Source of the DNA: an uncultured virus (IMG/VR IMGVR_UViG_3300027779_000014)
Lineage: Duplodnaviria > Heunggongvirae > Uroviricota > Caudoviricetes
IMG/VR virus record: IMGVR_UViG_3300027779_000014
Strand: one strand, 5' to 3'
Length of the DNA: 56,189 nucleotides
Below are positions 176-33,292 of the stretch, one piece after another (within the stretch, counting starts at the first letter, position 1; each line of letters begins with the position of its first letter). The translations under genes were made by a program, and so were the position numbers. The notes under the pieces were generated by a model. The model worked only from the letters and a program-made list of their open reading frames with translations, was not told the DNA's origin and did no database searches.

Positions 176-340
176 TTATACAATATAATGTTCACCTTCG
201 ATGTATATGGTCTTAACTCTACCATCTTCGTGCATCTTCAAGTAACATGCCTTACACAAATCACCAAACTCTGGTAGTGCATAGAAGTAAGGTTTTCCAC
301 ATTGATATTGTTCACATATTCTCTCTCTAGTTTCTGTCAT
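176..340 (-). CDS. small Cys-rich protein (54 aa)
   Basis: Motif-defined start; MTETRERICEQYQCGKP...CKAC; below ORF-track cutoff. Confidence 0.7.
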   Translation of the reverse strand: MTETRERICEQYQCGKPYFYALPEFGDLCKACYLKMHEDGRVKTIYIEGEHYIV

Positions 341-349
341 GGTCAGTTT

Positions 350-628
350 TTAGTACAATATCTCTTGTCTAGTTATTCCAACTGAATCACAGTGTTTGTG
401 AAACTCTAACTCAATATTATTCAAATATTTTAATTTAGATTTTATTTGACTGTAAGATAACTCGCCGTCACACGCAAGATTTTCTGGTGAAAGTCTGCTT
501 CCTAAATGATTGGCGATGTCCTTTGCCGTATTTTCATTAAGAGGGATCGTAATGTCGGTCCCTCCTGTTATGTTATTCCATCTGTTTATATCTTGGATGA
601 AATTTCTTAAATTTTCTATTTTTGTCAT
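350..628 (-). CDS. hypothetical phage protein (LSPENLxCDGE family)
   Basis: ORF with motif start; LSPENLACDGE motif recurrent in phage proteins. Confidence 0.8.
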   Translation of the reverse strand: MTKIENLRNFIQDINRWNNITGGTDITIPLNENTAKDIANHLGSRLSPENLACDGELSYSQIKSKLKYLNNIELEFHKHCDSVGITRQEILY

Positions 629-639
629 GGTCAGTCCTC

Positions 640-954
640 CTAATCGGAGAGTTTGCTTTCATAGAAGAGCGAATCCCATAACTCGCGGGGTTCCCCTAGT
701 TCTTCCCTAGCATGGAATGTCATGGTATCGTGATCCAGCATTTCATCAAGAAGGCAAATTAACCCATGCAAAGCCTCTAATTTATCTAAAAACAAAGGTG
801 CGTCTGCCATAAGTTGCCTATCTGTGTCACTAGCAGGTGTATCATCGTCCAGATAGATTGCTTTCAATCCATCGGCCCAAACTATTTCTTGCCATTTGCT
901 AGTAGGTGTGCGTCCGAGGTATCGTGCCTCGTCAATTTTTCTATGTTCTGTCAT
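640..954 (-). CDS. hypothetical protein
   Basis: Start moved to motif ATG at 954; LMADAP motif. Confidence 0.75.
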   Translation of the reverse strand: MTEHRKIDEARYLGRTPTSKWQEIVWADGLKAIYLDDDTPASDTDRQLMADAPLFLDKLEALHGLICLLDEMLDHDTMTFHAREELGEPRELWDSLFYESKLSD

Positions 955-978
955 GGTCAGTGGCAATTCTAGTTGCAT

Positions 979-1176
979 TTAATCTTGTTCTGGGCCTTCT
1001 AATTGGAAGGCTGCGAATGCTTTCTGCATCATTTCTAGCAGTTTTGATGTTCCTGCTTGGACTAGATAAGCGCCGTTTTGATTCCATTGTTCCCACATTT
1101 GTTCATCTATGTAAAATTTTATTTCTTTTCCATTGGACATATGTATTGTCCCTTTGATTTTTTCTATATCTGTCAT
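979..1176 (-). CDS. hypothetical protein
   Basis: Motif-started ORF. Confidence 0.75.
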   Translation of the reverse strand: MTDIEKIKGTIHMSNGKEIKFYIDEQMWEQWNQNGAYLVQAGTSKLLEMMQKAFAAFQLEGPEQD

Positions 1177-1185
1177 GGTCAGTAG

Positions 1186-1599
1186 TTAAGCAGCCCTCTG
1201 TAAGAGCTGCTTAATTTGTTCTGCGGTGAATTTGAATTTCTTCCCGTCATTTCTTGTAACGGAAATTGGATACTTTCTCCTTTTTCCGTTTAATCCTGAG
1301 ATCTTGAAGGTATGGTCGTTCTGCGTGAATTCCTTTCCTAGATCGTCTGGTGACAATCCATAATGGATAGCATTTGTCTTGAAATCTTTAACCTCTTTTG
1401 TCTCAATTGTTCCGTCATCGTTTGTTGCAGATACTTCAATTTTGAAGGTTATAGGAAATATGCTGTCACCTGTGTAACTGGCGTTTCCTAATTTTACCTG
1501 CAGTCCTTCATGGATGTTATCAAGAGAGCCATCATTGATTTTGGCTTCAATGGTTCTTCTTAACCTCATTATAACATCACTGGCTTTTTGCTTTGTCAT
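1186..1599 (-). CDS. hypothetical phage protein
   Basis: Motif-started ORF, 137 aa. Confidence 0.8.
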   Translation of the reverse strand: MTKQKASDVIMRLRRTIEAKINDGSLDNIHEGLQVKLGNASYTGDSIFPITFKIEVSATNDDGTIETKEVKDFKTNAIHYGLSPDDLGKEFTQNDHTFKISGLNGKRRKYPISVTRNDGKKFKFTAEQIKQLLQRAA

Positions 1600-1814
1600 G
1601 GTCAGTTTACCTTGTTAGGGCACCCTTCTTGATAGCATTCATCGGGATAATTTACCGCGAAATTTGCTTCTATAGGTTTGCCACATTTTGGGCAAGTATA
1701 ATATCTGCTTGGACTCAATGTATCACTCCGCAGCATCTATTACATGAGACTGGATGACTTCCTCTGTATCGAGGATGAGGTTCATCGCATTCACATTCTG
1801 AGCTAATTGTCATC

Positions 1815-2108
1815 TTATTCACCTAGTATTGGCTCCATTCGGCCTTCCTTCGGTTTTACTGTGATAGTATAACCCTTTCTAGTAACATCTGCATCCCAGG
1901 CTATTTCGGGGTTGGTTACTTTCCGAATCATAGGATCCAGAAGTTCGTCAGTCACTTCTTGTGCTATCTTTCTCGCAAGATAGTCGAAATCTTCTTTTCC
2001 ATCCAATATTAGGCTGAACCTCTTCCACACCATTCGGTGTAGCTTACGGTAACGCCTGGCTTGTTCCTCTATTTTGAGGGTGTTTGGATTTTGAATTTTT
2101 AGTTTCAT
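1815..2108 (-). CDS. hypothetical protein
   Basis: Motif-started ORF. Confidence 0.75.
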   Translation of the reverse strand: MKLKIQNPNTLKIEEQARRYRKLHRMVWKRFSLILDGKEDFDYLARKIAQEVTDELLDPMIRKVTNPEIAWDADVTRKGYTITVKPKEGRMEPILGE

Positions 2109-2119
2109 GGTCAGTCAGG

Positions 2120-8782: not shown

Positions 8783-8784
8783 GA

Positions 8785-9142: not shown

Positions 9143-10381
9143 TTAGGTTGTAAGCGGCTTCGTCATTTGAAGATTGCTTAAACACCCTAGTATGAGTTTC
9201 TTGTATAAATCAGAGTTATCTGTAAACATTTGTTCAGAATACCAGTAATGTCCGAAAGAGTATTCCTCTATCATCCATAAGTCATGGTCTACTACTTGTT
9301 TCCATGTGTCGATAACATGGACTACTTTTCCTGCTGCATCGTAACATGCATAATAGTAGTAGTAGGCACTACACACAGGAAATAGCCAGGATATCCAATC
9401 TAATTGGAAAAACCCAAGACGGTTCATGTGTTTATTTTCTAGTGTATCGTTTCGCATATTATTCGATATTTGAGTCGGCATAATTAGATCGTCAGACAAA
9501 TGGCCGTGGATCTCTATATATTGCTCAAACACCTCCTCCCAATCTTTCAAGTCATATCGATATTTTTCGATATCCTCACTGGGAAACAAATGATTTAGGT
9601 CGTCATCTTCAGGATTTAACCATCCGATTTCATTAATGTAACCTTCCCATTCCCATCCCTCATTGCATGATTGGTAATGTTCCGCGAATGCCTCTTGGAA
9701 TGAACTATGCCATCCCATTTCTTTTGCATCTCTTGTGGATGGATATTCTGGTGGTGAGTAATTTCCATCACCATAGAGCATGTCCTTTACAGATAGTTTT
9801 CTAATATCTAATTTATCGTGTTTGTCGCCAAGATATCTTGTATCTTGGTCGGTCCAATGAACCTTCAAGTATTCATTTCTATCTTCGAAATACCCTGGGG
9901 TCGCTTCGTGTCTTTTCATAAACAAACTAGAACTAGGATTTAACATCACTAACATATTCCATTCTCCTACATCTTTCCCCTCGTATAAATTGTGAGGGAC
10001 ATATTTGTGAAGGTTTATCGAGTATTTCCGTAATTTTTCAATTTCGCTCAAGTCTGTCTCGTTTATATCTCGCCAATCATATGGCGGACTTTCATTTTGA
10101 ATCATCCATTTTTCGCTTCTCTCATCGTCTCTGTTTAGGATTATGATCATCTCTAAATCTAACTCTGTTGCGAGTTCGTCTAAGATAGTTTCACATTCCT
10201 GGAATTCAGGAATTATTGTGTAATTTATAATATGTCTTTTCTGACATGAACTACCTAATCCTATTGATTTAGCATAGTCATCTTTTAACACTTTACTACA
10301 ATCTGTGCAGTATTTGAAGTGAGATCCTATTGCTTTTGAGAACGCTTCCATATGGAGATTCTTAAATTCTTTCATTAACAT
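9143..10381 (-). CDS. acidic protein with N-terminal DUF6011-like zinc finger
   Basis: CTDCSKVLKDDYAKSIGLGSSC. Confidence 0.7.
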   Translation of the reverse strand: MLMKEFKNLHMEAFSKAIGSHFKYCTDCSKVLKDDYAKSIGLGSSCQKRHIINYTIIPEFQECETILDELATELDLEMIIILNRDDERSEKWMIQNESPPYDWRDINETDLSEIEKLRKYSINLHKYVPHNLYEGKDVGEWNMLVMLNPSSSLFMKRHEATPGYFEDRNEYLKVHWTDQDTRYLGDKHDKLDIRKLSVKDMLYGDGNYSPPEYPSTRDAKEMGWHSSFQEAFAEHYQSCNEGWEWEGYINEIGWLNPEDDDLNHLFPSEDIEKYRYDLKDWEEVFEQYIEIHGHLSDDLIMPTQISNNMRNDTLENKHMNRLGFFQLDWISWLFPVCSAYYYYYACYDAAGKVVHVIDTWKQVVDHDLWMIEEYSFGHYWYSEQMFTDNSDLYKKLILGCLSNLQMTKPLTT

Positions 10382-10673
10382 GGTCAGTTACTTCAGGCCA
10401 ATACCTTGTCATAGGTAAGGCACAGTGTTTACAATATCCGTGTCCATCTGCCATTACTTCTTCTCTCCACTTCTTCGCTTGTGGTTTGAATTTGTCCCAG
10501 CAAGAACATCTTTTTACTGTACTTTGGTTCATCATTTCTTCCTCCTCCTCAACTCCAACAATTTTTTCATTAATGTCGGATTAGTATGTGTTTCCATAGC
10601 GAGCCATGGATTCAATTTGTTTGGAATTTTAATCTTCATTCTCTCCCTCCTGCTGATTTCCTTGGCGTTACCG

Positions 10674-10934
10674 TCATTTGATAGTTTCCTTTTCGTGTTT
10701 AATGGTTTTTTCATCCCAATTGTCCCAAGATTCATTTGAATCTTCTGGATCTTCTTCTATCTTTTCAATCATATTAAGAGATGAAATGATATCCCATGCT
10801 TCTAATTCTTCCGGATGGAACATTAGTACATGCAACATTTCTCCTAAAATATCTATTTGTTTGGTTAGGTGTATTTGGTAGTAGATTTGAGCAATAATTA
10901 ATCCTACCATTGTACCTATAATGTATTCATACAT
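10674..10934 (-). CDS. small membrane-anchored protein
   Basis: Motif start; N-terminal hydrophobic helix. Confidence 0.7.
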   Translation of the reverse strand: MYEYIIGTMVGLIIAQIYYQIHLTKQIDILGEMLHVLMFHPEELEAWDIISSLNMIEKIEEDPEDSNESWDNWDEKTIKHEKETIK

Positions 10935-10948
10935 GGTCAGTGGAAATT

Positions 10949-11725: not shown

Positions 11726-11732
11726 GGTCAGT

Positions 11733-12830: not shown

Positions 12831-12838
12831 GGTCAGTT

Positions 12839-13432: not shown

Positions 13433-13440
13433 GGTCAGTG

Positions 13441-13868: not shown

Positions 13869-13875
13869 GGTCAGT

Positions 13876-14121: not shown

Positions 14122-14130
14122 GGTCAGTAT

Positions 14131-14565: not shown

Positions 14566-14572
14566 GGTCAGT

Positions 14573-17628: not shown

Positions 17629-17640
17629 TATGGTCAGTGC

Positions 17641-20438: not shown

Positions 20439-20447
20439 GGTCAGTAA

Positions 20448-20753: not shown

Positions 20754-20766
20754 GGTCAGTATTAGC

Positions 20767-21027: not shown

Positions 21028-21037
21028 TTAATCACCC

Positions 21038-21292: not shown

Positions 21293-21299
21293 GGTCAGT

Positions 21300-21401
21300 T
21301 TATTCGTCATCTAAATCCCATAATTCGAAGATGTATTCATCTTTTATTATTCGGAATCTCAATACTCCGAGGTCATCGGTTGGTTCAAACATTGCTTTCA
21401 T
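21300..21401 (-). CDS. small protein (33 aa)
   Basis: Fills exactly the space between two motifs: MKAMFEPTDDLG...DLDDE. Confidence 0.6.
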   Translation of the reverse strand: MKAMFEPTDDLGVLRFRIIKDEYIFELWDLDDE

Positions 21402-21411
21402 GGTCAGTTTC

Positions 21412-22302: not shown

Positions 22303-22309
22303 GGTCAGT

Positions 22310-22801
22310 TTACTCGAATCCTGATGTAACGGCTACGAAAGCAGCCTTAGCATCTTTTTCATTGAGTATTTCTTTTACAAATTCATATCCCGATGGAACA
22401 CCATCCCAGGCTCCTTCTGCCCATTCTTGTGCGTCACCGTCGCTAGAAATTGTAATTTCATCTCCTAAGTGGTGTTTGGCGAGCAACAAAGTTGCTGTAA
22501 CCAATCCGTCGTATTCCTTTCTCGCAGTCTTGCAGAAATTGAATACCATATCTTCGTCTTTTCTCCAACTACTTTGAATCGGTTTCCTTTCTAAGACGAA
22601 TGTTTCGTGTCCACCGTCGAAACGGATTTCATTATCCGTAATTGTAGGGTCGTTCCAGTGTTCGTATTGATTGTTTTGTTTAGCTCTTTCAATTATTGGG
22701 CTTTCTTCAAGCAGTTGCTTGGCATCCCTTGTCATATTATTCCATTTTTTATCGGACACTTTCTTGTCCTTTTTCATATACCAATAGTGTGTATATCCCA
22801 T
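22310..22801 (-). CDS. conserved phage hypothetical protein
   Basis: MGYTHYW...FCKTARKEYD...ISSDG. Confidence 0.8.
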   Translation of the reverse strand: MGYTHYWYMKKDKKVSDKKWNNMTRDAKQLLEESPIIERAKQNNQYEHWNDPTITDNEIRFDGGHETFVLERKPIQSSWRKDEDMVFNFCKTARKEYDGLVTATLLLAKHHLGDEITISSDGDAQEWAEGAWDGVPSGYEFVKEILNEKDAKAAFVAVTSGFE

Positions 22802-22810
22802 GGTCAGTTT

Positions 22811-23098
22811 TTATTCGTCTTCGTCCCGAGCGACTGGTTCTTTGCCGTCTGAGAACTTTGATTTGTCCCAAGACCATAATGCCTCGAATGCAAGATCGTC
22901 CTTTTGGTCGGGTTCTCCGATGTTAGGACAATACTCCAATAAAGTTTTGATTATTGTCATGGTGTAGCTTCTATCGAAAGCGATTGCTACGCCTTCGTGG
23001 TACCATTTCCCATGGTATTCTCCTAAATATGTAGCCTTATCATCATAATTTTGCCGCGCTTCGTCGATGGCGGCTTTCAACTGTTTTGTTGTTGTCAT
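22811..23098 (-). CDS. hypothetical protein
   Basis: Motif start at 23098. Confidence 0.7.
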   Translation of the reverse strand: MTTTKQLKAAIDEARQNYDDKATYLGEYHGKWYHEGVAIAFDRSYTMTIIKTLLEYCPNIGEPDQKDDLAFEALWSWDKSKFSDGKEPVARDEDE

Positions 23099-23106
23099 GG
23101 TCAGTC

Positions 23107-24162
23107 TTACATCATAAGAGCATGAAATGTTCTTTGTGTGCTTGTAGTGCTTGTCGAACCGCATTGGTTTGGACAAGGCCCACAGTCTGTTACACAACCT
23201 ATTACATGTGCATCTGCTTCTGTAAGTGCGTCTTTATCGTTAAAGTATTTTGGACCACCATAGACCCACCCTGTTTTGAGTTTTGTATTGCCATCTTCAT
23301 CTTTTAAGCCGTACTTTTTGGCTTTGTAAGATTTTGGATGTATCAATATGTCTTTGTCTATGTGTTCCATTCTAGGATCACTCCTTCTCATTTGCCAAGG
23401 GGTTTCAATTATTCTAATTCCTTCTTTTATAGTTAGATTGTAGAAAGCGTCTTGACCATGCCATAGGATATCTCCCATACCTTCTTCGATTGGTTGGTTC
23501 TTTTTCCAGGGGAATGTACATAGCCGCATGAATATCGATTCTTGCGGAGTCATTTTTTTGTATCTCCTGATAATGTCTATAATCACTGGAACTCGGGAAT
23601 TCGGATCGAATTCTCTAGTCCAGTCATACCCTGCTATGACGCTCCAATGTAGGATTGCGCCAGAAAGTGCTAACCTCCCTAGTTGTGATGGACTAGGTGT
23701 ATGCCAAAACTTGGTGATAATCACCATTCTTGAACCAGCCATGCTGACTGTTTCTGCTGCTTTGACTGTTAGATCCCAGTCATATGAGGGATCTCCCATT
23801 ACTCCGTTTCTAACCCATTCCTTCGGAATATCTGTTGTGCTTTTACTACACCTTTCTAAGTGTTTTAGCACATCAGTTTGAAGTTTTACGGGTTCGAGTA
23901 TTTGAGATTGTGGACTGTCGAACTTAATGGCCTGGAATGTGACTCCCATGGAGGATTCGGCATAACAACCGAAACATCCACCTTTGCAGCCTTTTACTGT
24001 GTCCATTATATTCTTGTCTGTTTTATTATTCTCATATAGTCTAATCACTTTGTTAGGGAAAGGCGTTAGTACCGTTCCAGAACCATTTACTTTTTGTGAT
24101 GTCTGCTTTGGTAGAACGGGTAATTCCCATTCTACTTGCAGTTTCATATTTTTTAGTATCAT
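23107..24162 (-). CDS. radical-SAM-like / gp88-like Fe-S protein
   Basis: CKGGCFGCYA (CxxxCxxC), RNGVMGDP, C-terminal CxxxCxxCxxxC. Confidence 0.6.
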   Translation of the reverse strand: MILKNMKLQVEWELPVLPKQTSQKVNGSGTVLTPFPNKVIRLYENNKTDKNIMDTVKGCKGGCFGCYAESSMGVTFQAIKFDSPQSQILEPVKLQTDVLKHLERCSKSTTDIPKEWVRNGVMGDPSYDWDLTVKAAETVSMAGSRMVIITKFWHTPSPSQLGRLALSGAILHWSVIAGYDWTREFDPNSRVPVIIDIIRRYKKMTPQESIFMRLCTFPWKKNQPIEEGMGDILWHGQDAFYNLTIKEGIRIIETPWQMRRSDPRMEHIDKDILIHPKSYKAKKYGLKDEDGNTKLKTGWVYGGPKYFNDKDALTEADAHVIGCVTDCGPCPNQCGSTSTTSTQRTFHALMM

Positions 24163-24177
24163 GGTCAGTTGGTTCAT

Positions 24178-24543
24178 TCATGTTAAGCACCTTCCTTCTC
24201 GGTGCCTATACAATACTTCATCGGATGTATCGCAATACACCCTAAGACAATGCTCGCAGTAGTCTGTCCCATTCTCCCTCAATGCTTCGCCCATTACTTC
24301 GTATGCTTTACGCAACTTCTTGTATTCTGCTAGAATAAGTGGTGCGTCTGCCATCAGGCATCCGTTTATTTGCAATTGTTCTGGTGATTGGTTGTGTTCG
24401 TGCATTTTGCATATACTCTTCCCTTCTGGTTCTGGGATCATTATTTGTGGCGCGTAAATATACGCTTCATCTCCCCAGAGTTCGAGGTCCCAAGGCCCTT
24501 TTGTGTGGCCTTCATATTTACTCAAGTTTATTCTAATTGTCAT
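24178..24543 (-). CDS. hypothetical phage protein
   Basis: HTKGPW...LMADAP; motif start at 24543. Confidence 0.75.
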   Translation of the reverse strand: MTIRINLSKYEGHTKGPWDLELWGDEAYIYAPQIMIPEPEGKSICKMHEHNQSPEQLQINGCLMADAPLILAEYKKLRKAYEVMGEALRENGTDYCEHCLRVYCDTSDEVLYRHREGRCLT

Positions 24544-24706
24544 GGTCAGTTGTGGAGTCTTCTTCAACTCCATCATGGTCTATTTCTAGTAAAGCCATGC
24601 CCATGAAAATTATATTTTCTATGAATTGCCAGTCCTCAACGCCACCGCCTAATATCTTAGCGTGGCTGATCAAGTCTTCCACTATCTCTTCTCTCGTTTT
24701 TGTCAT
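24533..24706 (-). CDS. small hypothetical protein (57 aa)
   Basis: Motif start at 24706. Confidence 0.6.
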   Translation of the reverse strand: MTKTREEIVEDLISHAKILGGGVEDWQFIENIIFMGMALLEIDHDGVEEDSTTDHDN

Positions 24707-24714
24707 GGTCAGTC

Positions 24715-24948
24715 TTATGTTCCAATTATTGCTATTTGAGAATCATCGTCGTGTAGGTATTTGTGCTGGGCCAGAAATCCTCCGCAAGCAGAGATTGTTC
24801 CTATCATGTGCCCATCGCAGTGAGAACAGTATCTTTCTGTTACTGCTTCTGTCCTTTTACCTGTTTTATCTGTTATTGTTACGAGTTTTCCAATTAGTTT
24901 ATGTGTGTATTCTTCGAATACTTCACCTGTTTCGGTAATAATCTTCAT
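24715..24948 (-). CDS. small zinc-binding protein
   Basis: Motif start; CSHC...HKYLH. Confidence 0.7.
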   Translation of the reverse strand: MKIITETGEVFEEYTHKLIGKLVTITDKTGKRTEAVTERYCSHCDGHMIGTISACGGFLAQHKYLHDDDSQIAIIGT

Positions 24949-24958
24949 GGTCAGTTAT

Positions 24959-25816
24959 TCAGTAACTTCTTCCATATACTGAATATTCTATATCATATGG
25001 TTCCCAGGGGTCATCTGGATCTTCATCTTCATCTTCCGAAGGTTCCGCATAGTAGGTCACTACCCCATTAACTGAGGGGTGATTAGCGAAACTTCCAAAG
25101 TTTTCAGTTAGAGATCTGTTCAAAGGGCTATACATACTTATGTATCTAGCATTCATTAAAGTTGCAAGATTGAGTATTTTTCCTTTGGTTTCCCAACCGG
25201 ATGGAGTTAGAGTATGGTTGTCAAATCGACAACTATAAACTTCTAATTCGTTTATATTTAATGGGTGTTTAATGCCCTCCATATCTCCTTTCTTTGTATA
25301 AGTAACTGATTCAAAATAACCTGAATCATGTCCTCCTGAAAACGCGGCTTCGATGTTTTGCCATTCGTTTCTCTTTACAAATTCTCTCATTGCTTTATGA
25401 GGTTCGTCTCCATCTTGTTTCCATAGGGCAAGAACGCTTTCTTTTGCTATTTCCCACTCTTTTTGATTTAGAAATCCTTCTCCTGGATACACTGTTTGAT
25501 TCTTAATGGTCAGAAGGGCTTCTTCTGTCCTTCTGTCATTTACTTCTGAGGTAGTCAAAGTTTCGAACTTTTCTATCTCTTTCTTGTAACCTTCTATCAA
25601 TGGCTGTTGCCACTCGGAAGGTTTTGGATTGTTTACTGCATTTCTAAGCCGTTCCATATCCCTGTTTGTTTTATCATTTAATGAAGAAATAATATCCGCG
25701 AATGATTGAGTATTTTTCAATTCTTCATCGGAAAGGGCTCTCCATTGTTTTTCAGTCATATTTTCAATAGTGAATTTTGTTAATTCAATACCGAGTATTT
25801 CACTTAATAGTGTCAT
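24959..25816 (-). CDS. hypothetical protein with FSGGHDSG (DUF6878-like) domain
   Basis: Motif start; paralogous motif. Confidence 0.7.
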   Translation of the reverse strand: MTLLSEILGIELTKFTIENMTEKQWRALSDEELKNTQSFADIISSLNDKTNRDMERLRNAVNNPKPSEWQQPLIEGYKKEIEKFETLTTSEVNDRRTEEALLTIKNQTVYPGEGFLNQKEWEIAKESVLALWKQDGDEPHKAMREFVKRNEWQNIEAAFSGGHDSGYFESVTYTKKGDMEGIKHPLNINELEVYSCRFDNHTLTPSGWETKGKILNLATLMNARYISMYSPLNRSLTENFGSFANHPSVNGVVTYYAEPSEDEDEDPDDPWEPYDIEYSVYGRSY

Positions 25817-25825
25817 GGTCAGTAG

Positions 25826-26074
25826 TCATGGTTTTTTTTTCCATGATTGTTTTATTACAACTGCTTTCATTTCGATGTAAGCGAAATATCCACATATTGA
25901 ACATAAGGCTTCATATTCACGCCCCCAGCGATCGTAATTTGTGCAATTGAATCCTTCTTCGTCTTCCGAATCTTCGAACCATGGAGCTTCACATGCTGGG
26001 CATGATGAGCCGTGTCCTACTTCGTTGAAATCATCCCCTTCTTTATACGGGAACTTCTTTACTTCTTCTGTCAT
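25826..26074 (-). CDS. zinc-ribbon protein
   Basis: CPAC...CSIC. Confidence 0.7.
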   Translation of the reverse strand: MTEEVKKFPYKEGDDFNEVGHGSSCPACEAPWFEDSEDEEGFNCTNYDRWGREYEALCSICGYFAYIEMKAVVIKQSWKKKP

Positions 26075-26083
26075 GGTCAGTAT

Positions 26084-26419
26084 TTAATCATATTTTTGAT
26101 TAGGAAATTCATCCCTATATTCCTTTATACTTACAATGAAATGTAAGTAGGGTTTCCAACTTCCGTAAGGAAAAATGATGAAATCTACATTATCACCTAT
26201 GATGGCATCTTCTAGTAGAATTGCACCCCATGATTCATCATCGTATGGTGTGTGTGGTGTGTGTAGTTCATCGATTACTCCCTCTGCTTCCTTCTGCGCT
26301 TCCTCTTGAGTGGCGTATGTGCGTAGGAGGCCGTCAATAACATCACAAGCACACCATCCAAACAATTGGTTTTCTGCTACGACCCAAACTTTTGCTGGGT
26401 CTAATTTTTTTATACTCAT
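26084..26419 (-). CDS. hypothetical protein
   Basis: Motif-started ORF. Confidence 0.75.
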   Translation of the reverse strand: MSIKKLDPAKVWVVAENQLFGWCACDVIDGLLRTYATQEEAQKEAEGVIDELHTPHTPYDDESWGAILLEDAIIGDNVDFIIFPYGSWKPYLHFIVSIKEYRDEFPNQKYD

Positions 26420-26425
26420 GGTCAG

Positions 26426-26743
26426 TTATCTGCAATGTTCGCAGTAATCTTGTTTTTGTTCGCTTTGGTAATCGCGGTCTGAGGGACTAAGCATACTAAC
26501 TTCTTCCCAACAATCTTCGCAACAAAGGAATGCTGAACCTTCACCACCCATGTAACCAACAATTGCTTTTTCACCGCAATTGTCGCACATGAAATGAATA
26601 TCGCATTCATCATTTGCACAAGTATTGTTTGCGCCGCTATTCATTGTAGCGTCGACGCATTTTTCGCATACTCCGCCGTCAGGCGTTAATCTTTCACATA
26701 CCCATACTTCGCATTGTATGGGAATCTCTGATAATTTTATCAT
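26426..26743 (-). CDS. Cys-rich protein
   Basis: Motif start; multiple CxxC. Confidence 0.7.
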   Translation of the reverse strand: MIKLSEIPIQCEVWVCERLTPDGGVCEKCVDATMNSGANNTCANDECDIHFMCDNCGEKAIVGYMGGEGSAFLCCEDCWEEVSMLSPSDRDYQSEQKQDYCEHCR

Positions 26744-26758
26744 GGTCAGTAGGTGAAA

Positions 26759-26983
26759 TCACTCTATTAAGTGTGATAACACATAATCAAGGGGCATCCA
26801 TCTGTCGCCGCATTCGTTTAGGAACATATGCTCTTCAAACGGTCCGTCTGTGAAAGTACCCACATCTCCTGCCCAAAGGATAGAATGTATAATGAATATA
26901 TCATTAGGTAGATCGTCTCCGTAGTCTACAACCCATTCTACTTTTTTTCCTAAGTGTTTTTTATATTTTTCAATATCTGTCAT
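26759..26983 (-). CDS. hypothetical protein
   Basis: Motif-started ORF. Confidence 0.7.
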   Translation of the reverse strand: MTDIEKYKKHLGKKVEWVVDYGDDLPNDIFIIHSILWAGDVGTFTDGPFEEHMFLNECGDRWMPLDYVLSHLIE

Positions 26984-26991
26984 GGTCAGTA

Positions 26992-27348
26992 TTAGGCTTC
27001 AAGGCCTAATTCTTTGGCGGTTTTACCGCCTCGTATCATCCAATCTGCTGGTTTGATAGTTTTCATCCAATCTGCTGGAGTCGGAACAAATCCGAAATCT
27101 TCCATAAGATGCTGTTCTCCTATCCATCTTGTTGGTACTTCTTTTCCTGTGCTTTTCACAGTCCACATTGAGCCAAAGACTTGTTCGCAGATTGTGATTC
27201 CTAGTGTGTGATGTAGTATCGATCTATGGGTGAAATTCCATCCATGTTCTTTTGATTGGTCGAACCATTCGTGTATGGACATATAATCTTCCGGCTTTCC
27301 GCCCCATTTCTTAACTGAACTCATCGCATGATGTATTGCTGTACTCAT
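26992..27348 (-). CDS. DUF6915-like protein
   Basis: HHAMSSVKKWGGKPEDY..IHEWFD.SK...HRSILHH...GEQH.MED; variant motif ACTTATC|ATG. Confidence 0.75.
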   Translation of the reverse strand: MSTAIHHAMSSVKKWGGKPEDYMSIHEWFDQSKEHGWNFTHRSILHHTLGITICEQVFGSMWTVKSTGKEVPTRWIGEQHLMEDFGFVPTPADWMKTIKPADWMIRGGKTAKELGLEA

Positions 27349-27366
27349 GATAAGTTCGGATTGACC

Positions 27367-27404
27367 AAAAAAAAGTGCCGAGACACCCATATTGGTGCCT
27401 CGGC
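27367..27404 (-). terminator. stem-loop plus U-tract, putative terminator
   Basis: GCCGAGGCACC-AATATG-GGTGTCTCGGC then ACTTTTTTTT on minus strand. Confidence 0.65.
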
Positions 27405-27414
27405 TTTATTTTAG

Positions 27415-27687
27415 TCATTGGCTCAATTCATCCCATAATTCGAGATTGATTGTGCCGTGGTAACTATCTGCCCAATTGGCAGAATAGTATTTTTCATCAT
27501 TTGTTATTGGATCATCATAAGGACTGCTTTGGTCTAGTTCCCATAATAGAATCTGTTCCTTTACATTCTTTGATGCCCTTTTCTTTTGGTATTCATTACC
27601 AAATTTAATGTCTTGTTCTAGTTTTTTGAAGTACCTTGACTTGGTACTTATGTCTGTTGCTGCTGTTGCTGCTTTTCGATTCGACAT
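27415..27687 (-). CDS. hypothetical protein
   Basis: Variant ACTGACCA|ATG. Confidence 0.7.
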   Translation of the reverse strand: MSNRKAATAATDISTKSRYFKKLEQDIKFGNEYQKKRASKNVKEQILLWELDQSSPYDDPITNDEKYYSANWADSYHGTINLELWDELSQ

Positions 27688-27696
27688 TGGTCAGTA

Positions 27697-28119
27697 TCAC
27701 TTGTAAATTATTTTATTAAGTGCAGAAAGCGGAACAATTTTTTCAACAAATAATTTGGAATTTTTGTGTTCCCATGGCTGAAAATTGTATTGTTCTGTTT
27801 CTCTGTCCCATATTCCTACGCTTAGATTTAGCCCTAGTTTGACACAGGCGTTTACTGTCCCGAATAGGGCAGAAGTAAGGCCTGATGCGTAAAGAGCTAC
27901 TTGTAAATCGTGAAATATGGTTGGATCTTCCTCATAAATTGATTGAATCCTTTTTGTTGCTTTAGCATAGTAAGAATCCGGATTTTTTGGATCTAACTTG
28001 TTAGGATGAACGGGGTCCTTGACCTTACTCTCGTCGAAAACGAGATAGTCAATTGGTGTTCCGTCATTCTTGTTTGGTTGATGCCCTGGTCGGGGCATTA
28101 ACAATATGTGCAATGTCAT
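27697..28119 (-). CDS. hypothetical Rossmann-like protein (possibly CARF/Csx3-like)
   Basis: ACTTACC start at 28119; LYASGLTSAL...WDRETEQY. Confidence 0.6.
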   Translation of the reverse strand: MTLHILLMPRPGHQPNKNDGTPIDYLVFDESKVKDPVHPNKLDPKNPDSYYAKATKRIQSIYEEDPTIFHDLQVALYASGLTSALFGTVNACVKLGLNLSVGIWDRETEQYNFQPWEHKNSKLFVEKIVPLSALNKIIYK

Positions 28120-28202
28120 GGTAAGTAGGCACATAGGTAGTGGTGTGCCTTCCACTGCCCCGAAGGGTCTTGCTTTTTGCCAATTAAGGCTAACGAATTT
28201 GA

Positions 28203-29249
28203 TTATTCGGCTTCCAGTACAAGGTAGTCAACATTTGACTTTTCTCTTACTTTCTGGGTCATATTCTTGGAGATTATCTCAGAAAGGTGTTGTTCCCCTT
28301 TCTTGAGCAATTCTGCTGCGGCTTCTTGATTTATTTTTATGTTGTTTGAGAGCCATTGCTTCTCCGATTTGTCCCAGTCACCTGGATTGCTTGATAAATC
28401 GTTTTTGCAAACATCTGATTCGATGCGTGGTTGCTGTTTTTTCCGATAAAATCTTGTTCTTCTTTGAGGAGGGGCGTGCGAAAGTGATCTTTTAACCCTA
28501 TTAGAATGTTTAACATTTCCTTCTAGGATTGATTCACAAAGTTCACACTTGCCTCTACGGGTGCCCATGATTTCAGAATTCCTTTTCCTGATGTGGCAAC
28601 CTTTCTCTTTAGTAACTTTTTTCAAATGCAGTTTTTCGTCATTCAAACGAGCCTTTGCTCTGCGTGTACGAGAAGATTCTAATTTCTTGGACCTTCTCTG
28701 CATAGCATCTACCCAATTATAGGGTACTTGCGGCGTTCTCGTAGAAGTAGCCATGGCTTCCGCTTTGGGCGGGGCTTCGGATTTGACAACCATCGTGGTT
28801 GCTGTGAATCGTACTGGCTTGAATCTTCCATCGAGTTTCCCTTGTTTATTTGTAGGGATCTCTTCGTTCCATTCTACTTTGCATTTTGCCAATTGTATAA
28901 CTTTTTCAGTCACATGACCGTCATTAGATGCGTCATAAAACAAATTCAATGCATAGTTAATTTTTTGTACTAACACATTCGGTGTCAGCATCTTAGCATT
29001 TTTATTCAGTATTACTACATCTTCTTCTTCGGTAGTGAGGTTATCCAAGTATGGCTTTATTATCGAAATCAATATTTTTAGGTAAGATGCTCTTCTTAGA
29101 GCACTTTTGCCTGCACCGGAATTACGCTTACTTATTTTCATAGCGCGTTTCCTTATGGCGGCTTCTCTTTCAGTTAGAGAAGAGATGCGGCCATTTTGGC
29201 TTGCAATTTCGTTCATTATTGGTTCATTATTCGTGCATTTATCTTGCAT
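28203..29249 (-). CDS. basic hypothetical protein (348 aa)
   Basis: Motif start; K/R-rich. Confidence 0.75.
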   Translation of the reverse strand: MQDKCTNNEPIMNEIASQNGRISSLTEREAAIRKRAMKISKRNSGAGKSALRRASYLKILISIIKPYLDNLTTEEEDVVILNKNAKMLTPNVLVQKINYALNLFYDASNDGHVTEKVIQLAKCKVEWNEEIPTNKQGKLDGRFKPVRFTATTMVVKSEAPPKAEAMATSTRTPQVPYNWVDAMQRRSKKLESSRTRRAKARLNDEKLHLKKVTKEKGCHIRKRNSEIMGTRRGKCELCESILEGNVKHSNRVKRSLSHAPPQRRTRFYRKKQQPRIESDVCKNDLSSNPGDWDKSEKQWLSNNIKINQEAAAELLKKGEQHLSEIISKNMTQKVREKSNVDYLVLEAE

Positions 29250-29684
29250 GGTCAGTTACGGGATTTGTTCACTCGCCACCTATCCCGTATCGGTGGGTCA
29301 TTGTGTCTAGTTGCCCCGAAGGGGCGTAAACCTCGTTCATTATTCACTTGGCCATTCTTTTTTCTAAAAACATTTTAAGTTCATTAGATGGTCCCCAACT
29401 TCCTAACACTTGACGAATAGTCAAGGGAAAGTTGTAACCTATGGCGGCTGATAAATCTAGATCCGTAATATTGTAGACTGTTGGTATTCCGGACATGGAA
29501 GCGAACTTGACTTTTATTTCGTCATTTTCCTTCCATGCAGTTCCGTAACCGGTCTTTATTATTAGTTTTCTTTCGTTCATTGGTTCATTATTCGTGCGTT
29601 TATCTTGCATGGTCAGTTACGGGATTTGTTCACTCGCCACCTATCCCGTATCGGTGGGTCATTGTGTCTAGTTGCCCCGAAGGG
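29207..29684. repeat. ~115-bp direct repeat (29207-29323 and 29571-29684) covering leader structure, motif and first codons
   Basis: Near-identical sequence; both genes begin MQDK.TNNEP. Confidence 0.95.
29344..29610 (-). CDS. hypothetical protein
   Basis: Motif-started ORF. Confidence 0.7.
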   Translation of the reverse strand: MQDKRTNNEPMNERKLIIKTGYGTAWKENDEIKVKFASMSGIPTVYNITDLDLSAAIGYNFPLTIRQVLGSWGPSNELKMFLEKRMAK

Positions 29685-29685
29685 C

Positions 29686-31419
29686 TCAACGCTGCTGTTT
29701 TCGAGCAGGCTTGCGTGTTGGTTTTTTGCTTTGCTTGGCTCGGTGATCGTAAGCATCCTTGGTTAGAGGCACTGCTTTTACTCCGATGACTGTTCTGCCA
29801 CCGATTGTCACCATTGCCGGAGTCAATTGAGACCTATTTCTCCCAATTTTTCCGTTTAAGCCGACTTTTTGCTCTCCTTTAGAACCATTGCTCTTTCCAG
29901 ATAGTTGGGCGTTCTCAAAGCCGAAAGGCCAGAATACGCTATTATCCTTTAATTGTTGCAATGCTTTTACAGTGGACTTATCCTTTTTATTTGCTTTATC
30001 GCCTATTTTTAGTAGGTAAGCGATGTTGGATAATACCCCAGTTGGCTCATAGCCGTGTTGGGCTGTCCTAGACTCAGAAGCTAAGATATTCATAATCGAA
30101 GCTGCTTTGCCTTGTCCTAAAACTTGTTGAAAGTAAAGTTCTGCCAACTTGGCTCCCTTCTTAATATCAGATACATCCCGTGGTTCAAGAGTTTTTCGTC
30201 CTCTCTTATCACAAGACTTTTCTGCTTTCGAACCTCTCATGAAGATTGAACTGTGAACTTCTATGCTATAACCTAGTTTTTGTAGAACTTTGGTTTTCAT
30301 TTCTAGCAGTTGAGACACAATTTCCCAATCAAGGAAGCGAGCGTTCTTGCTCGGATTTCGAGCGAGTTTCAGTGTACCCAAGTTCGGGTCATCTCGATCT
30401 ATTCCGTGATTGATTTGTAAATCTTTAAGGTTTCCAGTCTTAGGTAGTATGGTTTGTCCATACGGAGTTGCAAGTCTGATTAGGTTAAACCTACTCAGTG
30501 CGTTGACGCGATATACCAATATGTCTGCGTACTTTTGATTCTCTTGGCTCAGGTATTGATCCAAGTTAATGCCAAGTAATTCTTGTGCAGTTGGGTTTCT
30601 CTCAGTTATACGAGGTACGCCTTTGCCGACTTTGAACATACCAGGGGTATATTGTGGCGTTACATCATAAATAATCATAGACGCGAATTCTTTGTCGTCT
30701 GTTTCTGCGATGTAGCGCACACTTGTGCCCGCTGGTGCTAGTAACTGGAGGTCTTTTACTAATGAATCAGCATCATCTCGGCTGATTAATCCTGATGTTT
30801 TGGCTGTCTTGCCGTCATCAGATAGTAAATTGGACATCAAGGCATGAACGCTAGGATCTATTCCTATATTACCGAATGACATGGAACCTGACAATAAATT
30901 GCCAGCCACCATATTTCGGCCTTCTTGCGTTGTAGCTCCTTGTGTATCTGCTGCCTCTATAAGAGCGTGGGAAACCCACACTTCTTTATTAGGGACATTA
31001 AATGTTCCATTAGGACCTGTTTTCTCAGTTCTTTCATTTTCTTCTAGGTCTGCAAAGACTTGTTTCTTTGATTGTGCGTGCTCTTTCCCATACAATAAAA
31101 TCTCAACTTTAGAATCTCCTATAAAGAAAGTTCCGTCATTTTCTGATTTTGCATGTTCAAAAGATCTTACACACTCGATAAACTGGTCTGTTGCGTCGTT
31201 TTGCTTTGCGTTGTTTTTTATTTCTTGTGAAATAATTTTTAATGTATCTACGATAGGGCTTTTAGCATTCTTTGGCGTTGCATTTGCAATTTGCTCAAAT
31301 TGAGGCAATTTGCTAATAGCAGCCAAATCTGCTTTTAGACCCTTTAGGGTAAATTCAGTCATTATTTCATCTTTTGTCATATCAGCGTAGATTTCTACGC
31401 TTGCATTTTTCATGTGCAT
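29686..31419 (-). CDS. large hypothetical protein (577 aa)
   Basis: ACTTACC start; long ORF with no family I recognise. Confidence 0.85.
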   Translation of the reverse strand: MHMKNASVEIYADMTKDEIMTEFTLKGLKADLAAISKLPQFEQIANATPKNAKSPIVDTLKIISQEIKNNAKQNDATDQFIECVRSFEHAKSENDGTFFIGDSKVEILLYGKEHAQSKKQVFADLEENERTEKTGPNGTFNVPNKEVWVSHALIEAADTQGATTQEGRNMVAGNLLSGSMSFGNIGIDPSVHALMSNLLSDDGKTAKTSGLISRDDADSLVKDLQLLAPAGTSVRYIAETDDKEFASMIIYDVTPQYTPGMFKVGKGVPRITERNPTAQELLGINLDQYLSQENQKYADILVYRVNALSRFNLIRLATPYGQTILPKTGNLKDLQINHGIDRDDPNLGTLKLARNPSKNARFLDWEIVSQLLEMKTKVLQKLGYSIEVHSSIFMRGSKAEKSCDKRGRKTLEPRDVSDIKKGAKLAELYFQQVLGQGKAASIMNILASESRTAQHGYEPTGVLSNIAYLLKIGDKANKKDKSTVKALQQLKDNSVFWPFGFENAQLSGKSNGSKGEQKVGLNGKIGRNRSQLTPAMVTIGGRTVIGVKAVPLTKDAYDHRAKQSKKPTRKPARKQQR

Positions 31420-31439
31420 GGTAAGTATTTATGATAAGT

Positions 31440-31660
31440 AAGCAAGATTGTGGCATACTTGCTCTCTGCGGTGTCATTGAGAGTCCACCATCCTTTTGTC
31501 CTAAGTCGAGGGTTAGCACGACCAGACTTGGGATCCTTTGTTCGTCAAAGTTTTTTCTCGGCATGTTCGCTGAACCGCAGTAAAAATTGCTGCTTAGATG
31601 CTTCACCAAACCAATTATAGGTTCACCCTTTAATGGTCTGACTTATTCCACACAATATTT
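31440..31660 (-). ncRNA. putative structured ncRNA (~220 nt)
   Basis: Bounded by motif variants; stems agcaag/cttgct, tcctaagtc/gacttggga, ctgcgg/ccgcag. Confidence 0.45.
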
Positions 31661-31683
31661 TATGATAAGTATTTATGGTCAGT

Positions 31684-32100
31684 AGTTCCGTTGAGTAGTG
31701 GAAATTGAGCTTATCATTGACGCCGACCTTTTACAGTCGTCACTCAGTCATTTTCAATCTGCAGATTGTCCATGACTTGCCTTTGAATTTTTACGGCTCA
31801 TAGGTAGTAACCGGATTGATGATTTTTAGTCATCTATCCATTTCTACCCCTGTTGCTCTTTCGAGCATTTTGTGGCCTTTCGGCCTAATGGCATCATTTT
31901 ATCCTCTGGTAGAGGACTGGACTCAATTATCGGATTTCCATTCATCCGACCATTATTTATTGTTGTTGCTCTTTCGAGCGTTGCAAGGTTTCGCTTGCTC
32001 CGAACACCTCTGCAGGGTCGGTGTAGTTATGCTGTATCAACACTCCTCGAACTCTGATCGAGGACTTGTCACACACTCTTGGCTGTGTGAGCGTTTTTTA
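31684..32100 (-). ncRNA. putative structured ncRNA (~415 nt)
   Basis: Bounded by motifs; minus-strand GAAA tetraloop hairpins GCTC-GAAA-GAGC (x2) and GGCC-GAAA-GGCC; further stems. Confidence 0.6.
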
Positions 32101-32375
32101 CATGGTAAGTGCAGTTTGCGCGTACTGCTAGACGCATTATTTTTGGTGTTTGGCAATCTAAGTGTTGCCCATACTGTATATTTGCGTTTTAGTCCATATT
32201 ATCGCGGCCTAAATATACCGACCAAATAATAGTCTGCATATTGATGAATCCCTTTTTCTTTTCTTCTGGGTATTCAACCTCAATCATCTGCCTAATTTGC
32301 TTTCTGGAAAAATTTCGCATGGTAAGTGCAGTTTTGCGCGTACTGCTAGACGCATTATTTTTGGTGTTTGGCAAT
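32101..32375. repeat. ~57-bp direct repeat (32101-32157, 32318-32375) with pseudoknot and ACTTACC motif
   Basis: catggtaagtgcagttt(t)gcgcgtactgctagacgcattatttttggtgtttggcaat. Confidence 0.95.
32189..32320 (-). CDS. small hypothetical protein
   Basis: ACTTACC start at 32320. Confidence 0.55.
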   Translation of the reverse strand: MRNFSRKQIRQMIEVEYPEEKKKGFINMQTIIWSVYLGRDNMD

Positions 32376-32405
32376 TAGGGTTTGCCCAACCCATAAGATG
32401 CGGAT

Positions 32406-32510
32406 TTAGATTCTGCAATTCATTGTGCCGCACTCGCAGATTTTCCATTCTGGGTGCATTGGCAAATCATCATCGTATTCTATTCCGCATGAACATGTAT
32501 GTGTGTACAT
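32406..32510 (-). CDS. small zinc-ribbon protein (34 aa)
   Basis: ACTTACC start; CSCG...CECG. Confidence 0.6.
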   Translation of the reverse strand: MYTHTCSCGIEYDDDLPMHPEWKICECGTMNCRI

Positions 32511-32521
32511 GGTAAGTAAGT

Positions 32522-32848
32522 GTTCCAGGGCAAATTCTTTGGTCTGAAATGAGTGGGGGTCAGCACACTCATTCTCGTTGCCGATCATTACATCTCTGGA
32601 ACGGTAAGTGCCGCCACCTCCAATTAAGGAGGGCGTTAAGCCCGCATTCTCATCTGTCTGGTATAAGAGAGGAGTCCTAGGCGGATTCTGGCGACGGTAA
32701 GTGAGCCTTTTATAGATAATTACCGCGTTCTTGCTCAGGATTCCGCTTGGTAATCATAGACCTCTCATTTGACCGTAGAGAGGCTGGTGAAGGATCCACA
32801 CCCAATTCCCTCTTGCGTTATTAGGAGGGAGGTTTGGTAGATATGGAT
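32522..32848 (-). ncRNA. three motif-delimited small structured RNAs (32522-32602, 32610-32695, 32703-32848)
   Basis: Each begins right after ACTTACC with a paired 5' end (GTTCCAG/CTGGAAC; GTCGCCA/TGGCGGC; ATCCATATC/GGTGTGGAT). Confidence 0.55.
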
Positions 32849-33033
32849 GGTAAGTGCAGTTTGTGGTCATTTTCACTGCGAGACCAGGGTCAACACTGCT
32901 CTTAACTACCGAATTCATCGAGACGGCGCGTGTGCTTGTGTTGAAAATGGGATTTGGTCACTCGCCACCTTATCCCATATCAGGTGGGTCATAGTTCGTA
33001 ATTCAAGAATAAAGAGCTTGTATTTACTGCGGA

Positions 33034-33282
33034 TTAAGAAAACCTTCGATTCATTATTGCTTCTTGAATCAAATATTCTACATCTTTTTCGGCAGTCTTT
33101 AGTGCTTCGCGAGTATCTTTCAATTGTCTCAAGGCATTCCGAAATTTATTTTCGGAAATTTGGCCATTCATAAACAATCGCATTAACTGTTGCTCTAACT
33201 GCGGTTTATTCTTGTTGTTGGTCCTAACTTTACGGTGAGGTACAACCGACCCATCTCTGGGATTTGCCTGCTTATTTTGCAT
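33034..33282 (-). CDS. hypothetical coiled-coil protein
   Basis: ACTTACC motif 3 nt after tRNA CCA; start at 33282. Confidence 0.7.
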   Translation of the reverse strand: MQNKQANPRDGSVVPHRKVRTNNKNKPQLEQQLMRLFMNGQISENKFRNALRQLKDTREALKTAEKDVEYLIQEAIMNRRFS

Positions 33283-33292
33283 GGTAAGTATT

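Follow-up and report, generated by a model that had tools for sequence, protein, structure and literature searches.

The closest described counterpart of the element reported here is the start-associated sequence (SAS) of Cluster K mycobacteriophages, a 13-bp element with an AGGAG core that is located 3–7 bp from the start codon and whose function is given as not known in the accessible part of its description (PMC3203893). The element studied in this work is a seven-nucleotide word, ACTGACC, that directly abuts the start codon of most genes in an array of approximately 65 small genes, all on the minus strand, which fills the left arm (positions 176..33289) of IMG/VR record IMGVR_UViG_3300027779_000014. 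This record is a stretch of 56,189 bases from an uncultured tailed virus; it was analysed over its whole length and is referred to as the window. As far as the accessible description of the SAS goes, both elements are short asymmetric words placed before many starts in one orientation and in the non-structural arm, with a preference for ATG, and both are conserved across relatives in front of unrelated genes, are absent from host genomes and sometimes contain the stop codon of the upstream gene (PMC3203893). On the other hand, the AGGAG of the SAS base-pairs with the 16S rRNA 3′ end, whereas ACTGACC is 7 nt long, shows zero spacing to the start and has no Shine-Dalgarno (SD) content; furthermore, it belongs to an archaeal-type virus in which RNA contigs break at the word (PMC3203893). 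The distribution found in the window was of the SAS type, with a repeated asymmetric word at gene starts, in one orientation and in the non-structural arm only, and the RNA contigs suggest that this word marks the place where each gene's own short message begins.

Repeated start-linked elements are also present in T4-type phages, whose PeSL elements are sigma-70 promoters within stem-loops that act as joints for gene shuffling. They occur, as here, in an early region rich in small genes, but neither a hairpin nor a promoter-like upstream signal was found at ACTGACC. Long transcripts are cut into units with a 5′ start codon in mitochondria, where tRNAs punctuate the polycistrons, and leaderless mRNAs are made by MazF in E. 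coli. These cases resemble what we propose for the array, in which a tRNA gene precedes the first motif gene. They differ in that only one tRNA is present here, with about 50 other junctions carrying the 7-nt word, and in that no MazF/PemK homologue was found in two related viral genomes, G001 and G002.

Among Archaea, leaderless or very-short-leader mRNAs have no SD and carry the AUG at or near the 5′ end, as we propose for the messages of the array, and in haloarchaeal hsp70 mRNAs an A at −3 and a G at +4 matter, according to the accessible parts of two reports (PMC4983044, PMC4574771). At the sites studied here, A is invariant at −3, and 297 of 344 have a purine (A or G) at +4. The archaeal 5′ ends described in those parts are, however, primary starts behind a TFB recognition element (BRE) and a TATA box, whereas a fixed 7-mer with no promoter signal is found here (PMC4983044, PMC4574771). 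Early genes of crenarchaeal viruses likewise combine anti-defence-type functions and unrelated coding sequences with one regulatory word; in the accessible part of that report the word is a strong BRE/TATA promoter core with flanks, tens of bases long and located upstream, in contrast to a 7-mer that touches the ATG (PMC11065993). Within the literature searched, which did not extend to supplements, no prior description of ACTGACC at start codons was found. The words 'motif' and 'promoter' do not occur in the text of the magrovirus papers, supplements aside and as far as the accessible text of PMC5434244 goes, and the magrovirus family profile issued by the ICTV gives translation as 'Unknown'. 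There is a fair chance that the mechanism behind this start-associated repeated signal is new in kind.

The word joined to its start codon, ACTGACCATG, occurred 52 times in the window, from 338–347 to 29608–29617, and all 52 copies were on the minus strand, whereas 100 dinucleotide-preserving shuffles gave a mean of 0.07 copies and a maximum of 1. Bare ACTGACC was present in 55 copies, all of them on the minus strand, against 4.42 expected for both strands summed. The plus strand, the sequence to the right of 33.3 kb and, within it, the minus-strand genes at 47–56 kb were all free of exact copies. Most copies of ACTGACCATG (49 of 52) opened an open reading frame (ORF) of at least 40 aa, and the other three opened ORFs of 33, 12 and 12 aa. 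Of the 51 exact-word starts leading into an ORF of this size, 49 showed zero spacing to ATG. The three copies of ACTGACC that are not directly followed by ATG were all start-linked or in the leader region: one is separated from ATG by an A (27689..27695, minus strand), one by ATA in front of a 456-aa gene (17632..17638, minus strand), and one, at 31683 on the minus strand, precedes an ATA in the leader region. The stop codon of the previous gene lay 0–5 nt before the word in 34 of the 52 sites and overlapped it in 6, in 5 of them through the word's own TGA; in the remaining 12 the gap exceeded 5 nt and reached up to 167 nt. An earlier note on this DNA, made from the sequence alone, had reported 52 exact copies on the coding strand, near-constant zero spacing to ATG, a stop usually 0–5 nt before the word or overlapping it, and right-arm starts free of it, all of which these counts bear out. 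Its figure of about 18 variants, on the contrary, was too high.

Zero-spacing copies with one mismatch, on the minus strand and before an ORF of at least 40 aa, numbered six: ACTTACC at 33289, 32327, 31426 and 28126, AATGACC at 6087, and ACTGAGC before a GTG at 35952. Six further copies before such ORFs carried two mismatches, and some of these are probably due to chance. The minus strand has 12 copies of ACTTACC as such, of which 6 precede an ATG; those that were located lay between 28.1 and 34.2 kb. When a sister family built on ACTTACC was looked for, the scan gave only a coding tandem repeat. Classified by type with a simple gene call, the array starts comprised 49 with the exact motif (ORF of at least 40 aa), 4 with a variant, 7 of SD type and 5 with neither. 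Besides the sites themselves, the window holds no antisense copy of the word, the wobble-tolerant matches being scattered, and the idea of a guide RNA was set aside on this ground.

The sequence context of the word was examined in the 52 window sites and in a pooled set of 344 distinct sites with an ORF of at least 40 aa, taken from 22 sequences (the window, G002 and metagenome contigs judged to be real arrays). In the window sites, information content fell to background directly 5′ of the first A of the word. In the pooled set, positions −40 to −1 reached a maximum of 0.14 bit, with small signals at −4 and −1 that are due to stop codons and the base after them. The sites therefore carry no TATA/BRE box at a fixed distance and no SD; in particular, the A/T-rich box about 26 nt upstream, preceded by a BRE, that characterizes an archaeal promoter was not found in the 344 sites, nor was a T-run or other terminator-like signal at the motif junctions. 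The C at −1 and the A at +1 were invariant. Downstream of the ATG, in addition to the purine at +4, C was present at +5 in 208 sites and A at +6 in 223, and the following 20 nt or so of the ORFs were A-rich. The second codon in the window was ACA in 23 of 52 sites and ACT in 6, and in G002 the favoured codon was GCA, with 23 copies of a 10-mer that joins the last three bases of the word to ATGGCA. Predicted pairing amounted to about 0.5 in gene interiors, as against 0.36–0.43 across the word and the opening 25 nt of the ORF, and no hairpin linked to the word was predicted. The first base of the upstream stop codon, determined for 331 pooled sites, was most often at −4 (96 sites), followed by −3 (50) and +2, where the TGA lies inside the word (35). 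In 73 of the 331 sites no stop was present within 5 nt upstream, 67 of them showing gaps of 6–143 nt and 6 having no upstream ORF within 150 nt. The word thus goes with the ATG rather than with the upstream stop codon, which makes obligatory termination-reinitiation unlikely.

The same word was found in a small number of other sequences. G001 corresponds to the same virus (99.98% identity over window positions 1–33146); with 59 motif copies, it runs on for 3.6 kb past window position 1, so that the array continues there. G002 is a complete relative of 128,784 bp with direct terminal repeats that shares with the window scattered genes at 65–81% nucleotide identity. It carries 60 copies of the word on one strand within a 41-kb array (73.6–113.9 kb) and one copy elsewhere. 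By a simple gene call, its array starts comprised 56 with the exact word, 3 with a variant, 10 of SD type at normal spacing and 4 with neither, and its first large array gene shares only 22% protein identity with that of the window. A scan of viral contigs for a two-copy pattern returned only G001, G002 and chance matches. The chance matches, G003–G006, are phages of high GC content whose copies are SD spacers or belong to a duplication. The corresponding metagenome scan gave at least 123 stretches, and 80 loci were fetched. Among these, about 20 marine contigs with a GC content of 40–46% carried 1.5–2.2 exact copies per kb, on one strand and before ORFs, whereas the others were satellites, coding repeats (units of 20, 26, 29, 48 and about 240 nt) or single chance pairs. 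No word array was detected in one genome each of 185,579 prokaryote species, all 46 matches in that set, including a Thermoplasmata-labelled contig, being single chance pairs or coding repeats. The 10-mer occurred 0–12 times per genome, as did its reversed control, in 121 genomes of the class of a Thermoplasmata-labelled metagenome-assembled genome (G007), a class that may not be that of the host. A search for further relatives with a 577-aa protein and the alignment of the TFB-like protein described below recovered only G001 and G002 among viral contigs, and the thermosome query had no match in the species genomes. The word is thus private to one virus group, in which it does not change even though the proteins it precedes have diverged almost to the point where they can no longer be recognized. 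As a separate observation, eight of the metagenome loci (L099, L055, L059, L106, L077, L040, L097 and L096) were satellite-like repeats of 20, 26, 29 or 48 nt in which each unit holds ACTGACCATG, the 20-nt unit being a five-codon mini-ORF that ends in the TGA of the word; although a notable number of distinct families is represented, they were judged to be chance catches of the two-copy pattern.

RNA evidence was obtained from three seawater metatranscriptome runs of three studies (X1, X2 and X3), which held 72%, 50% and 47%, respectively, of the sampled sequence words of window positions 20001–30000. The data are assembled contigs, which carry neither exact ends nor 5′ chemistry and give no direct strand or level, and the statements that follow rest on 32 of 119 pieces, those that were listed. 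None of these 32 pieces crossed a motif with 31 nt on each side of it. Ranked by length, the first eight X1 pieces listed (1812, 1393, 1083, 979, 922, 823, 811 and 727 nt) each sat within one of the eight longest genes of the stretch 14.5–34.4 kb, and listed pieces began 8–33 nt inside ORFs. Stops recurred across studies at 17620 (X1 and X2), 31405/31404/31399, 25795/25800/25779 and 16228/16184/16235, the first of them being at the 456-aa gene with the spaced word (17632..17638), and the 3′ side of two pieces ended within the word (31678 and 23104). By contrast with the motif junctions, the X3 piece 20809–21263 spanned the junction between a motif-led gene (21038–21292) and its SD-led neighbour (20767–21027), both on the minus strand. 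These gene-sized contigs, which stop at motif junctions in runs of three studies, agree with the expectation of the earlier note that RNA units would break at the word.

Adaptor remnants at contig ends were in a single orientation throughout, which suggests stranded libraries and a leader RNA on the gene strand. Contig depth was highest at the head of the array and fell along it; this is a poor measure and was not used as evidence, nor were the array parts without RNA contig cover. Two of the three adaptor-marked low-coordinate RNA ends in coding regions, at 28206 and 24181, lay 0–1 nt before stop codons (TAA at 28205–28203 and TGA at 24180–24178), with a doubt of one base because the last T of the adaptor matches the reference; these ends could reflect chance, priming bias or A-site cleavage. 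Two repeats were observed within the array. A gene head is duplicated (29207–29323 vs 29571–29684, 96.6% identical, including the motif and 45 nt upstream), giving an 88-aa gene that repeats the start of a 348-aa gene, and a 274-aa gene contains a tandem coding repeat at 17915–18107, with about 12 copies of an 18-nt-like unit, that probably breaks RNA assembly there.

Upstream of the array, on the same strand, five tandem boxes of the form CCGGTGGC(C/A)TA(T/G), two of them followed by TATA-like words, point into the array at 34103..34578. Judged from its sequence, this cluster is likely to be the promoter cluster of the array. It is followed by an abundant leader RNA at 33485..34130 (minus strand) that is mostly without a long ORF (a 63-aa ORF is present at 33698–33889) and is covered by the deepest RNA contigs of the stretch (depth 38–60 in X2/X3). 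Its predicted fold was better than those of 20 of 20 shuffles (z = −3.9). The leader had no Rfam family match and was absent from all metagenome loci fetched; blocks of it are conserved between the window and G002, and we consider that it could represent a new structured viral RNA. A tRNA-Lys(CTT) gene with an encoded CCA follows at 33293..33369 (minus strand), and 3 nt later comes the ACTTACC-ATG of the first array gene. The promoter-proximal stretch from 31420 to 33289 (minus strand) is rich in ACTTACC, has short or no ORFs and shows high RNA depth; some of its ACTTACC copies precede an ATG (33289, 32327, 31426 and that of an ATG-TAA mini-ORF near 32110) and others do not. In G002 this organization includes six such promoter-like boxes, the leader with its conserved blocks, the same tRNA and an ACTAACC-ATG. 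A spacing rule between TATA and motif at the head promoter was discarded, as only the window, and not G002, has an ACTTACC close to the predicted start.

Altogether, the data led us to propose, tentatively and with a probability of about 45%, that ACTGACC punctuates a long transcript, initiated at the promoter cluster and containing the tRNA, into SD-less and near-leaderless mRNAs by cleavage. According to this proposal, the five or six promoter-like boxes at 34.1–34.6 kb would drive leftward transcription through the structured leader RNA and the tRNA-Lys gene into the array, and the long transcript would then be separated at each ACUGACC-AUG into gene-sized RNAs. The most likely agent would be a sequence-specific endoribonuclease of host or virus whose cut falls on the ACC|AUG border or no more than a few bases away from it. 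Every resulting RNA would have its AUG at the 5′ end or at most 7 nt from it and would be translated as a leaderless or very-short-leader message for which no SD is needed; the array genes without the word would be second, internal cistrons with an ordinary SD. As a side effect, the common word and the unit structure would let relatives exchange genes as cassettes. Cutting is preferred because initiation alone leaves read-through RNAs over every junction where no terminator-like signal is found, because no promoter element precedes the genes, and because the head of the array has the appearance of a long transcription unit's beginning in which a tRNA is processed. In the absence of terminator-like signals at the junctions, separate RNAs are therefore more easily accounted for by cutting than by termination at every gene.

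Several observations weigh against this proposal. PemK/MazF (PF02452) was matched in neither G001 nor G002, Pfam scans of 209 proteins brought up no RNase family, and we know of no sequence-specific nuclease that punctuates mRNAs in Archaea. The late-gene region of G002 (8–49 kb) holds five copies of ACTGACC on the gene strand, none of them before an ATG; a nuclease that reads 7 nt would cut those messages, so that either 10 nt would have to be read or the activity would be restricted to early infection. In addition, the contig-mapping tool rates contig stops as only a weak hint, the pattern was read from 32 of 119 pieces, and the X1 piece 29594–31405 runs 17 nt past the word at 29611–29617, within the duplicated stretch. 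Lastly, a virus-encoded TFB-like factor and two RNA polymerase subunit homologues provide a ready mechanism for an initiator.

The first of these proteins, of 306 aa, is encoded at 34610–35527 on the plus strand, next to the control region, and has a counterpart in G002. Its N-terminus has four spaced, zinc-ribbon-like cysteines, two of them invariant and two at least 90% conserved, and is followed by two cyclin-like TFIIB repeats. A profile built on 11 members matched human TFIIB in the PDB (E 5e-7 over 184 positions, covering both cyclin repeats) and Pyrococcus TFB (E 4e-4), and PF00382 was matched by 4 of the 11 members; the AlphaFold model had a predicted local distance difference test (pLDDT) score of 47 and was left out of the fold search. 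On the basis of these comparisons, the protein is a TFB/TFIIB homologue. A 97-aa homologue of the RpoH/Rpb5 C-terminal domain was identified by Pfam scan at 41686–41976 (plus strand), and in G002 the N-terminal 170 residues of an 839-aa protein (69544–72063, plus strand) matched archaeal Rpo1C/A″ (PDB E 3e-15; Rpb1_5). No match to Rpb1 domain 2 (Rpb1_2) or Rpb2 domain 6 (Rpb2_6) was found in G002. The virus group thus combines TFB/TFIIB-like and RpoH/Rpb5-like proteins (window) and an Rpo1C/A″-like protein (G002), with no catalytic polymerase domains found, and this gene set suggests a partial replacement of host RNA polymerase parts.

Given these proteins, ACTGACC might instead be a compact initiator at −7 to −1, with the A of ATG as +1, from which the RNA polymerase of the host, redirected by the TFB-like factor of the virus together with its RpoH and Rpo1C homologues, would make a TATA-less, leaderless mRNA for each gene. 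This is the main rival of the cleavage proposal, and we hold it to be possible, although rather unlikely. The TFB/TFIIB gene lies next to the control region in both the window and G002, the RpoH/Rpb5_C and 839-aa Rpo1C/A″-like homologues would supply polymerase parts, and the RNA contigs listed start 8–33 nt inside ORFs, with no start upstream of the motif. A start site with the invariant C(−1) and A(+1) agrees with the pyrimidine/purine rule that holds in Archaea and eukaryotes, and jumbo phages have multisubunit polymerases whose promoters are very short and lie at the start site. Against this, the 344 sites show no upstream element at all, TATA-less initiation by an archaeal-type polymerase is to our knowledge without precedent, and an initiator by itself gives no reason for upstream transcripts to end at each junction, where no terminator-like signal is found. 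Furthermore, no catalytic subunit was found in G002 (no Rpb1_2 or Rpb2_6 match), and a TFB gene is also present on the map of one magrovirus genome, so that the factor is not peculiar to motif-bearing viruses. A related scheme, with ACTGACC as a BRE and the A-rich ORF start as a TATA box, was rejected, as the RNA contigs begin upstream of the start it predicts and the ATG would be lost. The remaining explanations place the function of the word in the ribosome or in the DNA. The word could be an unusual SD sequence, as its position is that of a ribosome-binding site, but this reading is practically untenable. The spacing to ATG is zero, and the SD-type array genes and the late genes of the same virus use GGTGA/GGAGG words 4–8 nt before the start, as do the virion genes of G002, which lie partly on the same strand as its array (GGTGA/GGGGG/GGAGG, 4–8 nt upstream). 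An SD-like word within 10 nt before the motif was present in 27 of 369 motif sites vs 48 of 1476 control windows. The 3′ end of 16S rRNA was GGATCACCTCCT in 10 of 10 genes from the class of G007, which may not be the class of the host, and it showed no complementarity to ACTGACC. The earlier note had held that the word is not an SD and that array genes without it use GGTGA or GGAG at normal spacing, and had named a complementary 16S tail as the finding that would count against it; its view stands on these data.

In the same set of 16S genes, the exact complement of the word, GGTCAGT, was found internally at about nt 1136–1146 in 9 of 10 genes, with a duplex energy of −11.9 kcal/mol, in a segment that we take to be helix 34 of the head. 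The word could accordingly be imagined as a non-SD docking site that pairs with internal 16S rRNA and recruits or retains ribosomes at the internal AUGs of the polycistron. The commonest stop position, which leaves one base before the word (96 of 331), is in line with this idea, since a terminating ribosome would hold the word just beyond its A site. We nevertheless regard docking as very unlikely: a given 7-mer turns up by chance in an RNA of 1.47 kb about 9% of the time, complementarity does not extend past 7 nt, and 4 of the 7 rRNA positions are paired, in a long-range helix, in the Rfam consensus structure. With the AUG in the P site, positions −7 to −1 lie on the opposite side of the subunit; docking also leaves the gene-sized RNA contigs unexplained, and the rRNA compared may not be that of the host. 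A bolder form of the cleavage proposal, which we consider doubtful, would take the complement as more than chance: in such a private code, an early transcript of 33–41 kb would be cut before each AUG into about 50–70 leaderless messages, and the 16S match, in an internal segment adjacent to the decoding site, would couple cutting or re-use of a message to the ribosome that has only just finished the preceding gene. At the DNA level, the word could be chiefly a recombination signal (microhomology or a recombinase core) whose position at start codons is secondary. A blastn comparison of the window array with G002 and with 20 metagenome loci, restricted to matches of 150 bp or more, gave 100 match ends, 38 of which lay within 12 nt of a motif, as against 5.8% of random points. 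Shared genes were in scrambled order among relatives (e.g., L094), one X2 contig diverged right after ACTGACCAT at 19550, and the virus encodes a serine recombinase at 49313–50290. These data fit the idea of gene shuffling raised in the earlier note. As a function for the word, however, recombination seems most improbable to us. Whatever its function, a conserved word with diverged sequence next to it would be expected to produce such ends, and a recombination site needs neither zero spacing to ATG (49 of 52), nor replacement of the SD, nor coincidence with RNA breaks; known recombinase sites, moreover, are unlike a sequence of 7–10 bp without an inverted repeat. Any conserved word at gene starts would give such match ends, and cassette exchange is therefore viewed as a consequence and not as the function.

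The present virus group bears on gene expression in uncultured marine archaeal viruses. In it, the word replaces a per-gene promoter and ribosome-binding site for a third of the genome. Were the word a cut site, neither Archaea nor their viruses would, as far as we know, offer an earlier example of mRNA punctuation encoded in the sequence, and the virus group would be a source of an RNA-processing activity specific for 7–10 nt; were it an initiator, it would constitute a TATA-less promoter for an archaeal-type polymerase. Either way, it can be used as a marker that finds this virus group in metagenomes, and it delimits early gene cassettes of anti-defence type (ArdA, DUF3846 and many DNA methyltransferases).

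Regarding gene content, the array products include ArdA, DUF3846, DUF6011, several DNA methyltransferases, a PAPS-reductase-like protein and a PCNA-like protein, whereas most array proteins matched no family in Pfam scans. The right arm encodes glycosyltransferases, the RpoH/Rpb5_C homologue, the serine recombinase and tail-fibre proteins. G002 also encodes RusA, a serine recombinase (Resolvase, E 5e-36) and a thermosome-type chaperonin (Cpn60_TCP1, E 1.6e-101). The ACTGACC element thus belongs, as judged by homology, to a tailed virus group with TFB-like, RpoH-like, Rpo1C-like, PCNA-like and thermosome proteins. The archaeal setting assumed in the earlier note agrees with the TFB-like, Rpo and PCNA-like genes, and the label 'archaeal' is drawn from this gene content alone. 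In the accessible part of its description, magrovirus 'group D' has thermosome, resolvase and RNA polymerase A genes and no closed genome (PMC5434244). G002 has three of the features of that group as described there (thermosome, resolvase and Rpo1C-like), and the DNA polymerase feature was not found (PMC5434244). Family B DNA polymerase (PF00136) had no match in the complete G002, and the genome was not placed in 'group D' because of this missing DNA polymerase.

Two arrangements outside the array were also observed. The serine recombinase gene of the window (49313–50290, minus strand), for which PHROG gave integrase and DNA invertase as matches, is found at a distance of a few kb from the tail-fibre genes (53950–56184, minus strand), and the same arrangement is present in G002; it may represent an invertible host-range switch or an integrase. 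In G002, the thermosome-type chaperonin gene (28242–29744, minus strand) adjoins two giant ORFs on the same strand, at 29896–36351 and 10015–18984, which encode proteins of 2151 aa (with guanylate kinase, DUF7831 and DUF5754 domains) and 2989 aa, respectively.

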